Positions 2,917-56,584 of a stretch of 64,000 nucleotides of DNA are shown here, piece after piece. The position numbers and the translations under genes were made by a program. This DNA comes from a virus. Each line of letters begins with the position of its first letter. Positions within the stretch are counted from its first letter, which is position 1. The DNA lies in the IMG/VR virus record IMGVR_UViG_3300050160_000070. One strand, 5' to 3'. Under the pieces are notes generated by a model, which saw only the letters and a program-made list of their open reading frames with translations, searched no databases and was not told the origin of the DNA.

Positions 2917-3255
2917 GTGGTATTCGATGACCTGGACGACTTTGACATTGATGGGTATAATAGTGCTGGTGTGCACAGCTCCCACTATTACAACCGCAAT
3001 GGAACGCGTCGGGACAACGACTACGACGACAACTACTGCTACGAACCGTCTCCGCCGGTCGTACCCAAGCCCGTTGCCCCTGCAGTACAACCTCAGTACG
3101 TATTCATGAACAAATGGGAGCTGATCACCTCCACAGAAGTTCAGCATGCAATTTGCATGGCTCTGGCTGCCAAAGATCGGCAGATTCGTGAATACCAAGA
3201 TGAAATCCTTCAACTGCACGAGAAGATCAATCGTGCTCAAACCGCACTGGAGTGA
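2917..3255 (+). CDS. hypothetical protein (C-terminal coiled coil)
   Basis: GTG after GGAG; operon packing. Confidence 0.7.
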   Translation: MVFDDLDDFDIDGYNSAGVHSSHYYNRNGTRRDNDYDDNYCYEPSPPVVPKPVAPAVQPQYVFMNKWELITSTEVQHAICMALAAKDRQIREYQDEILQLHEKINRAQTALE

Positions 3256-4196
3256 CTCAAATGCAAGTAAAGCGAGTTGATTCGTCTGATGAGAATGTCA
3301 GCAAGTATGTGTACGATTTCGGCAACGCTGTTGCCGAATCGGTACTGTACAAATATCCGACGTACGAAGAACGTACGGTGATCTGTTGTTCCACACAAAG
3401 CGGCTGTCCGGTTGGCTGCCGATTCTGCGGAGCAGGCGACAATTTCGTTCGCAGCCTCACTGCTGACGAAATTGTGGCTCAGGTGCAGTATCTGTTCACC
3501 GATCGCAACATCGACCCTGCCCAAGTGAAGAAGGGTCAGATCATGTTCATGAGCATGGGCGAGCCGATGCTGAACAAGAATGGTCTGGAGGGTGCTCTGC
3601 GCAAGTTGCATCAGCTGTATCCGAATTTTGCGTTGCTGATCAGCACCAGCGGTCCTGCTGTTTCGTACTCGTGGCTGATCGAACTGTCGCAAGAGATCCC
3701 CACGATCGGCTTGCAGTTCTCTGTTCACGAGAGCACTGATGAGGCTCGCAACAAACTGATTCCGTTTGAGAACAAGTTGTCGCTGAAACAACTGTCCACA
3801 GTGGGTACGGTGTGGTCGACCAACGTTGGTCGACAAGCATTCTTCAACTACTGCGCTCACGAAGGGAATACCAGCGAGGCTGATGCAGATCGACTGCTTG
3901 AGCTGTTCGATCCGCGTTGGTGGCAAGCCACGGTCAGCGTGATCTGTGAACGCGACGAAAGCATCGCCGCTGCCAATCGCCGCCAGCGCGAACTCGCAAC
4001 CAACTTCATGTCCCTCTTGCTGGAACGTGGTTTCAGTGTGCGGTGTTTTGACCCTGCTGGTCAAGACGACATTGGTGGTGGCTGTGGCCAGCTGTGGTAT
4101 GTCCAGGATTGGATGAAGAACCATTCTGATCTGGCTCGTCCGAGCATTGGCCGCCTCAGTGGCATCCCGGTTGTGCATGCTCCCAGGGAAGGATGA
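3252..4196 (+). CDS. rlmN: RlmN-like radical-SAM RNA methyltransferase (lacks N-terminal domain)
   Basis: VICCSTQSGCPVGCRFC (CX3CX2C plus upstream Cys), FMSMGEPMLN and C-terminal DIGGGCGQL: both catalytic cysteines of RlmN/Cfr appear present. Confidence 0.85.
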   Translation: MTQMQVKRVDSSDENVSKYVYDFGNAVAESVLYKYPTYEERTVICCSTQSGCPVGCRFCGAGDNFVRSLTADEIVAQVQYLFTDRNIDPAQVKKGQIMFMSMGEPMLNKNGLEGALRKLHQLYPNFALLISTSGPAVSYSWLIELSQEIPTIGLQFSVHESTDEARNKLIPFENKLSLKQLSTVGTVWSTNVGRQAFFNYCAHEGNTSEADADRLLELFDPRWWQATVSVICERDESIAAANRRQRELATNFMSLLLERGFSVRCFDPAGQDDIGGGCGQLWYVQDWMKNHSDLARPSIGRLSGIPVVHAPREG

Positions 4197-5126: not shown

Positions 5127-5252
5127 TCTTCAACGCGATCTCAACGACAGTATCCTCGTGCCGTTAGTTTAACAAGCACAGCGCGGAAACAAAGAGCCGC
5201 TAACTGTGGGTAAAACACGAAGCAGCAAACTCACACGGAGTATAGGGCAGTA

Positions 5253-49782: not shown

Positions 49783-50232
49783 ATGCTGATTCTAGAGAAC
49801 CGTAAGGCCCGCTTTGATTATCACATCGGTGATGTGATCCAAGTCGGCATAGTGTTGGAGGGGTGGGAGGTCAAGTCGATCCGTGACCACCGGTTGACAA
49901 TGCCGGCTGGGTATGTGATCATCCGCGACGGAGAGTTGTGGTTGACGGGGTTGACAATCACTCCGCTCAACTCTGCCAGCACCCACGTCACCGCTGTGAA
50001 GGACCGCACGCGCAAGTTGTTAGCAAAGCGTAAGGAGATTGACAGACTGATTGGGTCGATTGATCAGAAGGGGTACACAATTGTCCCCGTTTCTTTGGTC
50101 TGGCACAACGGAGTCGTCAAGGTCAACATTGCACTTGCAAAGGGCAAATCTCATAGCGACAAGCGTCACTCCGAACACGACAAAGATGTTGCTCGAGAGA
50201 TTGATCGGATGTTGAAAAACAAAGGAAGGTAA
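49783..50232 (+). CDS. smpB: SsrA-binding protein SmpB
   Basis: ENRKARFDY, GIVLEGWEVKSIR, RTRKLL, GYTIVP, KVNIALAKGK..DKR tail. Confidence 0.95.
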   Translation: MLILENRKARFDYHIGDVIQVGIVLEGWEVKSIRDHRLTMPAGYVIIRDGELWLTGLTITPLNSASTHVTAVKDRTRKLLAKRKEIDRLIGSIDQKGYTIVPVSLVWHNGVVKVNIALAKGKSHSDKRHSEHDKDVAREIDRMLKNKGR

Positions 50233-53454: not shown

Positions 53455-53641
53455 TCTGGTCAAGCTGCACGGCCCAGATGCTGTACACGGACTCAACGTC
53501 TCGCTCCCTCGCATTCCTGTTGTTGGCGACAAGATCACTGACCGCTTGGTTACGTACCGAGTGGTTGAGGTGGATTTCAGGCGCGCAGCGGACGGAATCA
53601 ACTTCACCACATTTGTTGAGCTGGAGGAGGATCTACCATGA
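53447..53641 (+). CDS. small hypothetical protein
   Basis: Overlapping packing. Confidence 0.65.
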   Translation: MSNLVKLHGPDAVHGLNVSLPRIPVVGDKITDRLVTYRVVEVDFRRAADGINFTTFVELEEDLP

Positions 53642-53898: not shown

Positions 53899-53929
53899 AC
53901 TAGAATCACGCTGTTACTACATTGCATTA

Positions 53930-54250
53930 TCGGTCTGTGAAATACCAGGCACCTAACGGTACGGGGAGGTTTGCTAACGGCAAATACACCCTTCTCCAAG
54001 CGACTTTGTAGCGCTGCCAGGAGAAAAACGGCTAACGGATAAAGACGTCACAGTCTCCGTTAGCTGAACCCATATTTGTGACTAACCTTGTGAACAAGGC
54101 GGCGGGAACGGGAGACTGCTAGTGACCCGGGTGTACCTAACGTCGTACGATAACTTTGTACCCGGCTTATCCCCGGGTGAGGCCCTTCATCCCCGATGTA
54201 GAACTAATTGCTCTGAGCGGTGAGATACTGTTAAGTAAGGCTCATTGTAG
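53930..54250 (+). ncRNA. candidate structured ncRNA of unknown class
   Basis: About 390-nt gap with no ORF of 60 aa or more in any frame; stacked hairpins (GGCTAACGGA/TCCGTTAGCT, CCTTG-TGAA-CAAGG, CCGGGT-GTAC/GTAC-CCGG); CTAACG recurs four times. Confidence 0.5.
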
Positions 54251-54309
54251 CTGTTGTTTTGGTAAAGGGTGAACCTGTATAGTGGTGGCTAATTGGAAGG
54301 GAATCTCAG

Positions 54310-54690
54310 ATGCGAAAAGATGAACTGATTAGGCAATTGCAGCAAATTGAAGGAAATCCTGAAATTGTGTTGTGGAACGGCCACGTTGGTGATTACATGC
54401 ATATTGGCAAGCTGGCGGACGGGGACCTCGTAAAGACGACTGTTGCTCATTACCTCGAGATGTGCCAAGTGCAAGATCAGGTGGACCGCCAGGATTGGTC
54501 TTACAAAATGCCAGCCGATGAGGCTGAGCAGTTGAAGAAACGCCATAGGAAATTCCCTTGGGAGATCAACTCGTTTGTTTCGCTTGAAGATATTCAAGCA
54601 GGTCGCTATAAAAAGAAGCGCGTCGTTTATATCGAGCCGAAGAAGCGCGGAGAGACGCATTACGACCGACTTGGTTCGGTGGAGTACTAA
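54310..54690 (+). CDS. hypothetical protein
   Basis: 126 aa; promoter-like TTGTTT-18-TATAGT upstream. Confidence 0.75.
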   Translation: MRKDELIRQLQQIEGNPEIVLWNGHVGDYMHIGKLADGDLVKTTVAHYLEMCQVQDQVDRQDWSYKMPADEAEQLKKRHRKFPWEINSFVSLEDIQAGRYKKKRVVYIEPKKRGETHYDRLGSVEY

Positions 54691-55981: not shown

Positions 55982-56533
55982 ATGACACCAATGTTCGAAA
56001 TCGTCGCCGCCGCTGTTGTGCTCTTCGGTGCAGGATATTACGTGAGTAATCGGAGGAGCCGTAAGCGTGAGGCGCTACTAGAGAAGCAACGTCAAGAGGC
56101 TCACTGACGTCGTCAGCAGGAGATTGACGATGAGCAGAGGCGTGCTGCGCGACGCGCAGAGATCGCTCGTCAAATACGGCGTGACTCAACCATCTCAACT
56201 ACAACTGCCCCGGTCGCCCAACGATCAAACCCAGTCAGTCGTAGCTCAAGCGTCTCCAAGTCTCACTCATACGAGCGGCGTTCATCTACAATGAATGACG
56301 GGGATGATACTGCTACTGGTATTGTCTGGGCAGGTAGTAGCATTGCACAGATGAGCGACGACACTCCGTCTCGCAGCAGCTCAGATTGTAGCCACTCTTC
56401 ATACTCGTCGCATTCATCACACGACTCGTCGTACTCATCGTCCTGCGATAGTTCATCATCGTACTCATCGTCATCCGACTATAGGAAAAGGGCCATTTGT
56501 GGCCCTTTTCCTATTGCTGTTGCTGATCTTTAG
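55982..56533 (+). pseudogene. membrane-anchored Ser-rich protein interrupted by in-frame TGA (56105-56107)
   Basis: AAGGA SD; MTPMFEIVAAAVVLFGAGYYV...QEAH*RRQQEIDD...SSSYSSSSDY; the frame also runs through the downstream terminator hairpin. Confidence 0.65.
56481..56514 (+). terminator. 15-bp hairpin terminator
   Basis: ATAGGAAAAGGGCCA-TTTG-TGGCCCTTTTCCTAT. Confidence 0.75.
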
Positions 56534-56584
56534 GGTTATAGCTATAGTGAGCTTCATGTTAAACCTTCACACGGAGTAATCACC

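Follow-up and report, generated by a model that had tools for sequence, protein, structure and literature searches.

The window analysed here is a 64-kb stretch of DNA that corresponds to the reverse strand of positions 107327-171326 in a 174,565-bp IMG/VR virus contig; the sample is leaf litter, and the completeness of the contig was estimated to be about 50% by CheckV. The genome is about 93% coding, and the gene content of the contig includes rIIA/rIIB, SmpB, tRNAs, and numerous small genes. A non-coding gap lies between two genes of the + strand, and its features are listed in Table 1. Searches of Pfam, PHROG, and Atlas gave no functional assignment for the 126-aa protein encoded downstream. 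No function could be assigned to the proteins neighbouring the gap, and no candidate partner protein for the repeated motif of the gap was identified among them. The neighbourhood is mosaic, and the synteny with relatives extends to the 126-aa gene alone. The initial annotation had described a gap of ~320 nt as the only large one in this run of genes. The ORF-free gap is real, but its length is 411 nt; moreover, the segment 53899-54288 is one of two stretches of at least 200 nt in the window that lack an ORF of 60 aa or more. According to the public gene calls, a second gap (~290 nt) is located at 56295-56584.

Table 1. Features of the non-coding gap and its surroundings (window coordinates).
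Feature	Start	End	Strand	Remarks
Nearest upstream sigma-70-like promoter matches	53163	53206	+	TTGTCA-16-CATAAT (10/12); TTGATC-18-TATACT (9/12)
Upstream gene, 86-aa CxxC...CxxC protein	53638	53898	+	phrog_18256; stop codon borders the gap
ORF-free non-coding gap	53899	54309	+	411 nt; flanked by two + strand genes
CTAACG copy 1, ACCTAACGG	53953	53958	+	Predicted in the loop of a weak 3-bp hairpin (-1.7 kcal/mol on +)
Predicted hairpin H2	53963	53991	+	3-bp + 7-bp stem; apical loop AAC from CTAACG copy 2 (53974-53979)
Predicted hairpin H3	53992	54025	+	Outer stem UUCUCC/GGAGAA; pair probabilities 0.72-0.96
Predicted hairpin H4	54029	54066	+	14 bp; UAAA bulge; loop GUCACA; arms CTAACG (54032-54037) and CGTTAG (54058-54063)
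UGUGAC, complementary to the H4 loop GUCACA (54047-54052)	54077	54082	+	Candidate pseudoknot
14-mer GGTGTACCTAACGT with CTAACG copy 4 (54137-54142)	54130	54143	+	Exact match in L001, 3348-3361
CCCUUC, complementary to the Shine-Dalgarno sequence GAAGGG (54296-54301) of the 126-aa gene	54183	54188	+	Paired in the MFE structure
Weak promoter-like site TTGTTT-18-TATAGT	54254	54283	+	Ahead of the 126-aa gene
Downstream gene, 126-aa protein	54310	54690	+	ATG at 54310; sole anchor having homologues
Nearest strong terminator-type hairpin	56481	56514		15-bp perfect stem; bidirectional; z -5.0

The gap is non-coding. The reported absence of ORFs of at least 60 aa in all six frames holds for 53899-54288, and the longest ORFs in the gap (38, 34, and 33 aa) all start with TTG or GTG. 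The period-3 index of the gap is 1.02, compared with 2.0-7.9 in eight neighbouring genes, and the GC-by-codon-position pattern typical of genes is absent. Six-frame translation revealed at least 11 stops per frame, and all three kinds of stop codons are represented; recoding therefore rescues no frame, and an alternative genetic code was ruled out for the gap. The gene callers placed no gene in the gap in seven public assemblies. The tblastn search using the ORFs from the relatives' loci showed no similarity to the gap, which is thus no visible pseudogene, and a pseudogene remnant was rejected. ORF size, periodicity, and homologues were all negative for a protein-coding gene or a small ORF, and the possibility that small translated ORFs might account for the region was not borne out (ORFs of at most 38 aa, no period-3 signal). 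The + strand of the gap contains only one ATG, compared with 5.7 expected (p 0.004); whereas the - strand contains five and shows no depletion. Depletion on the + strand only fits an untranslated mRNA stretch that is exposed to ribosomes.

The whole gap folds like its shuffled versions (z -1.1 on the + strand and -1.2 on the - strand), with a folding energy of -129.7 kcal/mol on + vs -115.8 on -. Against the folding background between 47.7 and 63.8 kb (mean z -0.32, sd 1.2), the sole standout of the sliding scan was the segment 53960-54079, with a z of -4.55 on the + strand (-5.25 with 200 shuffles) and -2.6 on the - strand; the segment 53940-54070 gave a z of -4.2. This structured core of ~105 nt (53963-54066) is composed of three adjacent predicted hairpins, H2-H4. 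At least six hairpins in series had been proposed for the region. The three hairpins of the core beat the shuffles; whereas the remaining predicted helices outside the core have z values between +1.4 and -1.9 and are no better than chance, so the hairpin count shrinks from six to three. The case cautions that features judged by eye, hairpin counts and motif repeats alike, shrink under proper controls.

The energy of H2 is -10.6 kcal/mol on + and -7.2 on - (pair probabilities 0.81-0.99), that of H3 is -11.1 on + and -13.1 on -, and that of H4, which contains a 9-nt perfect inverted repeat (I8), is -18.9 on + and -15.5 on - (pair probabilities up to 1.0). The summed energy of H2-H4 is -40.6 kcal/mol on + vs -35.8 on -, and the core is predicted to fold a little better on + than on -. 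This preference is small: it holds for H2 and H4; whereas H1 and H3 are slightly better on the - strand, and therefore the strand assignment by energy alone is weak. The loop of H4 could also pair with a complementary hexamer downstream to form a candidate pseudoknot; by our own estimate, a 6-nt match (GUCACA/UGUGAC) at such a distance is weakly significant.

The four positions of the CTAACG motif given in the initial annotation (53953, 53974, 54032, and 54137, all on the + strand) are exact, and a fifth copy was found on the - strand at 54058, where the + strand reads CGTTAG. The cluster of four + and one - copies spans 190 nt. Of the 16 copies in the window and the 57 in the whole contig, five lie in this cluster, and no second cluster occurs in the 174.5 kb. 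The extended motif is S-CTAACG-K (8 bp), with a perfectly conserved core and variable flanks, and the spacings between the copies are irregular (21, 58, 26, and 79 bp). The recurrence was compared with that of any 6-mer recurring as often in dinucleotide shuffles of the gap. The p value was 0.025 for at least four copies on the same strand and 0.009 for at least five copies on both strands; with a corrected p of ~0.01-0.03, the recurrence of CTAACG is real but modest. The motif had also been placed in hairpin loops. This is in line with the partition function for three copies, which are predicted to be mostly unpaired (mean unpaired probabilities of 0.66, 0.56, and 0.65 at 53953, 53974, and 54137 vs the gap mean of 0.39); whereas the copy at 54032 is predicted to be fully paired. 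Hairpin H4 alone accounts for the copies at 54032 and 54058, which form its opposite arms. The CUAACG copies are thus partly a by-product of H4, two of them being its arms, and partly members of a putative small conserved module, CGUUAG-N66-GGUGUACCUAACGU, which one distant phage also has ahead of its homologue of the 126-aa gene. The repeats in the gap occur in pairs, namely GCTAACGG (twice, plus its inverse) and ACCTAACG (twice).

The promoter-like site that had been noticed ahead of the 126-aa gene is present, but it matches only 8 of the 12 consensus positions and falls under the scan threshold. No sigma-70-like match of at least 9/12 was found on the + strand of 53899-54309 by the scan, which covers consensus rather than phage-specific promoters. 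No intrinsic terminator (a GC-rich hairpin followed by a U-tract) was detected on the + strand of the gap. The sequences 3' of H2, H3, and H4 on this strand are UUCUCC, AAAAAC, and GAACCC, respectively. The nearest such signals are the promoter matches upstream of the 86-aa gene and the terminator-type hairpin ~56.5 kb, the energies of which are -27.7 kcal/mol on + and -26.9 on -. No PeSL-type early promoter cassette (TTGAC...TATAAT with the -10 box in a hairpin loop) was recognised in the gap, and a boxA-type antitermination site was also looked for there and rejected. In the MFE structure, CCCUUC and the Shine-Dalgarno sequence of the 126-aa gene are paired with a probability of 0.36-0.40, which is not significant alone; CCCUUC might partially mask this ribosome-binding signal.

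An Rfam scan, which had been proposed as a check, matched no family. With Rfam 15, nothing was found in the gap at the gathering thresholds, and the search at E up to 10 returned four chance matches of 12-18 bits vs cut-offs of 42-86. ARAGORN detected no tRNA or tmRNA in the gap at the default or ps80 settings, and its output at ps50-60 was junk. The lack of tmRNA, RNase P, and intron signatures, first noted by inspection, was thus confirmed by Rfam (gathering threshold and E-value) and ARAGORN. Tandem Repeats Finder found no array in the gap; tandem repeats were rejected, and the tandem ~34-45 nt repeats of a ToxI-like antitoxin were not found. A duplex between the gap and the tRNA-like RNAs of the phage was likewise rejected, as it is no better than those of shuffles.

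The public copies of the locus, including 19 contigs, are ~100% identical and therefore provide no covariation signal. In the low-coverage, low-quality assembly L034, a 5-nt deletion removes CTAACG copy 1. Of the 24 sequencing datasets listed as containing the sequence, none is an RNA dataset. The contigs of four runs across the gap are fragmentary and gave identical or non-overlapping cover; one contig of run X22 begins at 54270 after adapter letters, which is meaningless alone. The blastn search of the gap against 50,697 phage records gave nothing at E 1e-5 or E 10, the nhmmer search against all fetched loci gave no match, and blastn within its own genome revealed no paralogue. The anchor-protein query of a large protein database returned solely itself. 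Homologues of the 126-aa protein in L001, L007, and L008 are 53% identical to it; those in Rak2-like jumbo phages, for example gp135 of 121Q, are 38-42% identical. Among the loci found via this anchor, only L001 has a gap: the homologue is directly 3' of another ORF in L007 and L008, and it sits in a tRNA island in 121Q and WPEC3. No synteny was found by using the 86-aa anchor (L002, L003), the SmpB anchor (L010-L013), or the 313-aa anchor. The IMG/VR scan with a three-motif pattern revealed only L009, an unrelated viral contig with a repeat array; the scan with CGTTAG-N55-78-GGTGTACCTAACG revealed L001 again, together with three sets of chance matches inside coding genes. None of the five records searched with the covariance model of H2-H4 (L001, L011, L012, 121Q, and WPEC3) gave a match; a hit of 12-18 bits in L012/L013, which lies inside an ORF and has large deletions, was rejected.

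L001 is a 99%-complete 82-kb phage, in which two small genes and an ORF-free region of 1 kb lie ahead of the 126-aa homologue. The 14-mer GGTGTACCTAACGT is shared exactly between the sequence upstream of this homologue and the gap, and a shared word of at least 14 nt was obtained in only 2 of 2000 shuffles (p ~0.001). It is single-copy in both genomes, and a dispersed promoter or terminator motif was rejected for this reason. CGTTAG lies upstream of the 14-mer by 66 nt in the window and by 65 nt in L001. In L001, CGTTAG and the 14-mer are the base of a 40-bp hairpin, with the 14-mer at the 3' base; this hairpin is rich in G.U pairs, and its energy is -48.0 kcal/mol on + vs -30.3 on - (z -9.0). 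The strand asymmetry caused by the G.U pairs indicates that an RNA structure is under selection, on the strand that carries the genes. The hairpin is followed by UUUUCUCUCUC; whereas H2-H4 in the window have no such tail. Ahead of it is an ORF-free region of ~430 nt that is predicted to be a significantly structured RNA (z -4.8). In the window, the CGUUAG/CUAACG ends could close an 85-nt domain; however, H4 out-competes this pairing, the probability of which is 0. The remainder of the two gaps showed no convincing alignment. The 14-mer and its spacing, common to the window and this distant phage and located beside the same gene, are the sole comparative signal, and they hint at a small RNA module that would be conserved alongside the gp135-like gene.

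As the evidence stands, we are dealing with an orphan, non-coding spacer, a small core of which is structured. Support for a separate RNA gene or a sponge was not obtained, and therefore an untranslated spacer in a longer message is the most likely reading. Moreover, the depletion of ATG on the + strand and the lack of transcription signals in the gap favour a part of a longer mRNA over a free-standing RNA gene. The fold of H2-H4, which exceeds chance, and the strand asymmetry of the L001 hairpin also fit this reading, as do the ORF-free transcribed regions known from PA5oct, a phage of the same clade (PMC7318152). We tentatively prefer the interpretation that the gap might be left untranslated as an intercistronic spacer or leader of a longer + strand phage mRNA, in which its RNA hairpins would act in cis; it may well be wrong. 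We infer that the gap would be transcribed, that its hairpins would act in cis, and that they would have roles of the following kinds. The polycistronic transcript probably starts near the promoter-like sites at 53.2 kb, runs through the gap, and probably ends at the terminator hairpin at ~56.5 kb. On this RNA, H2-H4 would most likely act in cis. They would either direct processing or confer stability, dividing the message into segments and shielding the cistrons upstream, or form a leader by which the 126-aa gene is controlled. The last ~130 nt of the gap would then contribute the weak promoter-like site, the partial anti-Shine-Dalgarno sequence, and the ribosome-binding site of the 126-aa gene. 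Several observations speak against the spacer reading. A spacer with no other role would be long at 411 nt, considering that ~93% of the genome is coding, and L007, L008, and 121Q keep the downstream gene without such a gap. The CTAACG cluster is unique in 174.5 kb, which a plain spacer role does not explain. The 14-bp stem of H4 is too short for a classical RNase III site.

Intercistronic hairpin elements are known in phage mRNAs, including the RNase III sites of the T7 early region and the hairpins between the early cassettes of T4. Like these elements, the gap is non-coding, lies on the strand of the flanking genes, has stable predicted hairpins between cistrons, and is without its own promoter and terminator; moreover, the 40-bp duplex of L001 is of the size that RNase III cuts. 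The gap differs from them in its length (411 nt vs ~60 nt) and in its repeated 6-8-mer, and its hairpins H2-H4 do not reach the length of classical RNase III substrates. Its main use might be as a candidate locus onto which metatranscriptomes can be mapped.

Several other readings compete with the spacer or leader. It is rather unlikely, though worth serious attention, that the gap is a largely functionless remnant, namely the scar of a lost gene, a tRNA cluster, or a cassette in a hyperplastic early region, in which the hairpins and repeats arose from local duplications, inverted or direct. The lack of any homologue of the gap in the phage records at E 10, the IMG/VR pattern scans, and the relatives' loci would fit this reading, as would the mosaic neighbourhood with synteny limited to one gene. 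Rak2-like phages hold tRNA genes at the equivalent position, and the repeats occur in pairs, as duplication would yield. However, neither the tblastn search with the relatives' neighbouring ORFs nor the tRNA search with relaxed thresholds left a trace of such a past, and the ATG depletion, the core with a z of about -5, and the 14-mer of L001 suggest constraint; the gap is also unchanged in all sampled populations, though these are clonal. Unlikely too is a role of the five clustered S-CTAACG-K copies as sites in double-stranded DNA that a sequence-specific phage or host protein would bind; the cluster might serve as an operator array of the downstream operon or as a single-locus replication origin, packaging site, or partition site. 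The genome-wide uniqueness of the cluster, the perfect core with variable flanks, and the presence of both orientations, which DNA recognition tolerates, are consistent with such sites. Copies 1 and 2 are spaced by 21 bp, which is two helical turns, and the intergenic CTAACnGwTAGGG array in the unrelated L009 shows that DNA repeats of the CTAAC type exist. On the other hand, each of the five sites is merely 8 bp with irregular spacing, no AT-rich unwinding region or inflection of the GC skew was found, and no replication, terminase, partition, or regulator gene was recognised nearby. The depletion of ATG on one strand is unexpected for an element that works only as DNA, the motif in L001 lies in a hairpin whose many G.U pairs function only as RNA, and the corrected significance of the motif is modest.

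A discrete ncRNA of ~110-250 nt (~53950-54145), expressed from its own promoter or cut from a long transcript, is quite improbable; its CUAACG loops would titrate an RNA-binding protein, or the antisense copy and the loops would base-pair. As in the CsrB/RsmZ sponges, copies of a short motif are repeated, and the prediction places them in loops or other unpaired parts of consecutive hairpins; the structured core argues in the same direction. The gap, however, has three exposed copies of CUAACG (among four on the + strand), whereas known sponges such as RsmZ and CsrB have 8-22 sites, of the GGA type, and at least eight loop-exposed copies would be expected. No promoter or terminator of its own was found on the + strand by the consensus scans, the fold outside H2-H4 is no better than that of shuffles, and a binding protein and conservation are also missing. 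Copy 1 is absent from one natural assembly of low quality, and the covariance model of H2-H4 found no match in five related or anchor genomes; whereas the motif-bearing 14-mer in the distant phage adjoins the structured ORF-free region of 430 nt, which would be in favour of an ncRNA. A precedent comes from the jumbo phage PA5oct, in which RNA-seq defined four transcribed regions that contain no ORF (ncRNA001-004, 236-619 nt). These orphans lie on the coding strand and have neither known promoters nor sequence relatives (PMC7318152). PA5oct is also a large phage, distantly tied to the same Rak2/121Q super-group through the gp135-like gene; its regions are defined by RNA-seq, whereas the gap is defined by sequence and had no blastn match in the phage collection (the inclusion of PA5oct in which was unchecked). 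Giant phages have increasingly been shown to carry many unexplained RNAs. We also consider, as a decidedly doubtful proposal, a processed RNA of ~200 nt (~53950-54145), in which three exposed CUAACG loops and the antisense copy might act as a decoy or switch for an RNA-binding factor of the host or the phage, and the 3' module CGUUAG-N66-GGUGUACCUAACGU might be a mobile RNA element, carried along with the gp135-like gene when it passes between unrelated phages. If the gap did give rise to an independent RNA that sequesters a host factor, this RNA would represent a new takeover tool. It is very unlikely that the gap encodes a small RNA of ~300 nt on the minus strand, from TTCACC-18-TACAAT (54273 to 54244) to a weak terminator-like hairpin (53962-53949). 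These promoter and terminator signals of the consensus scan are in a consistent order, and H1 and H3 fold better on this strand; however, the scan matches occur at chance frequency (3 vs 2.1 expected, and 2 vs 1.9), the terminator tail is U-poor, the fold of both the whole gap and the core is weaker than on the + strand, and ATG is not depleted on the - strand.

A non-canonical tmRNA-like partner of the phage SmpB is the least probable of these readings and would be a great surprise. The contig encodes a full-length SmpB (49783-50232, PF01668, E 7.2e-50) 3.7 kb upstream of the gap, and no tmRNA was found in its 174.5 kb. The gap resembles tmRNA (RF00023, permuted forms) in its size of ~400 nt and its candidate pseudoknot, and GCU-AAC-GGN encodes Ala-Asn-Gly, which by our own reading resembles the start of proteobacterial tags. 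However, no tRNA-like domain with an acceptor stem, T-arm, and 3' CCA was found. The six-frame translation gave no credible tag frame with a hydrophobic ...(L/V)AA tail, and the frames starting with GCU-AAC end in ...QATL or after 3-6 codons. ARAGORN and the Rfam tmRNA models were negative in the gap even at loose thresholds, and RF00023 matched only tRNA-Pro (18.6 bits) over the whole contig. A genuine tmRNA may be encoded in the half of the genome that the contig does not include; moreover, the SmpB relatives L010-L013 have no comparable syntenic gap.

The integron attC sites have the cores RYYYAAC ... GTTRRRY and are 57-141 nt in length. An attC/integron reading of H4 was rejected, because no tyrosine recombinase is present in the contig (PF00589 absent). 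Moreover, H4 is only 38 nt, its GTTAGCT violates the RRR positions, and the locus belongs to a lytic-type jumbo phage, not to a cassette array. The cores nevertheless fit in part: H4 (...GGCTAAC...GTTAGCT...) is an imperfect palindrome with bulged bases like attC, and ACCTAAC, which occurs twice, fits RYYYAAC.

In the distant phage L001, which shares a 14-mer with the gap, the gp135-like gene is preceded by an ORF-free region of 1 kb, for which no match was found in Rfam. The predicted structure of an RNA of about 430 nt in this region was significant (z -4.8), and a 12-bp long-range helix is predicted to close it. This RNA is followed by a 40-bp G.U-rich hairpin with a U-tract, an AT-rich stretch, and then a classic terminator. 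The homologue gp135 of the 126-aa protein (54310-54690) is housed in the tRNA gene island of the Rak2-like coliphages 121Q and WPEC3; the island of WPEC3 additionally carries an inserted HNH endonuclease gene. The 126-aa protein contains several basic patches, and neither a fold nor a family could be assigned to it.

Coordinates of the features in the window, its contig and other viral sequences
Feature	Sequence	Position	Details
SmpB, full-length phage gene	window	49783-50232	PF01668, E 7e-50
Terminator-type hairpin, both strands	window	56481-56514	perfect 15-bp stem, arms UAGGAAAAGGGCCAU / GUGGCCCUUUUCCUA
Inverted pair	window	5161-5206	CCGTTAG + GCTAACTG, CGUUAG/CUAAC-type
Hairpin	contig, outside the window	77064-77098 (window coordinate)	arms CGUUAGG...CCUAACG
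L034 deletion 1	window equivalent	53499-53524	26 nt, inside 64-aa ORF
L034 deletion 2	window equivalent	53955-53959	5 nt, CTAACG copy 1 lost
L001 structured elements	IMGVR_UViG_3300033072_000232 (82 kb, 99% complete)	2940-3365 and 3474-3530
Repeat array, intergenic	L009, IMGVR_UViG_3300000553_000228	820-1020	at least six CTAACnGwTAGGG-type repeats

A second gap without a called gene (about 290 nt, 56295-56584) contains the terminator-type hairpin, which is equally stable on the two strands (-27.7 and -26.9 kcal/mol) and is the highest-structure 120-nt window across 47.7-63.8 kb (z -5.0). Despite the full-length SmpB, no tmRNA was detectable in the available 174.5 kb, and the tRNA complement of the contig is limited to four (Pro, Ala, Met and Thr).

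Elsewhere in the contig, the only close CGTTAG/CTAACG inverted pair is the hairpin outside the window, which immediately precedes the RBS and start codon (ATG) of a gene on the + strand; the number of such pairs is compatible with chance. The CGUUAG/CUAAC-type pair at 5161-5206 sits at the 5' edge of a tRNA-like RNA module, which is probably a coincidence. The low-coverage assembly L034 (JGI 3300050556 contig) carries two deletions relative to every other assembly of the locus; the variant is defective, or else the assembly is in error. A chance find of the CTAACGG pattern search was the repeat array in L009, a 29.6-kb viral contig unrelated to the phage of the window. Some of its repeats are palindromic and a 274-aa gene lies downstream; the array has the look of a set of iterons or operators.
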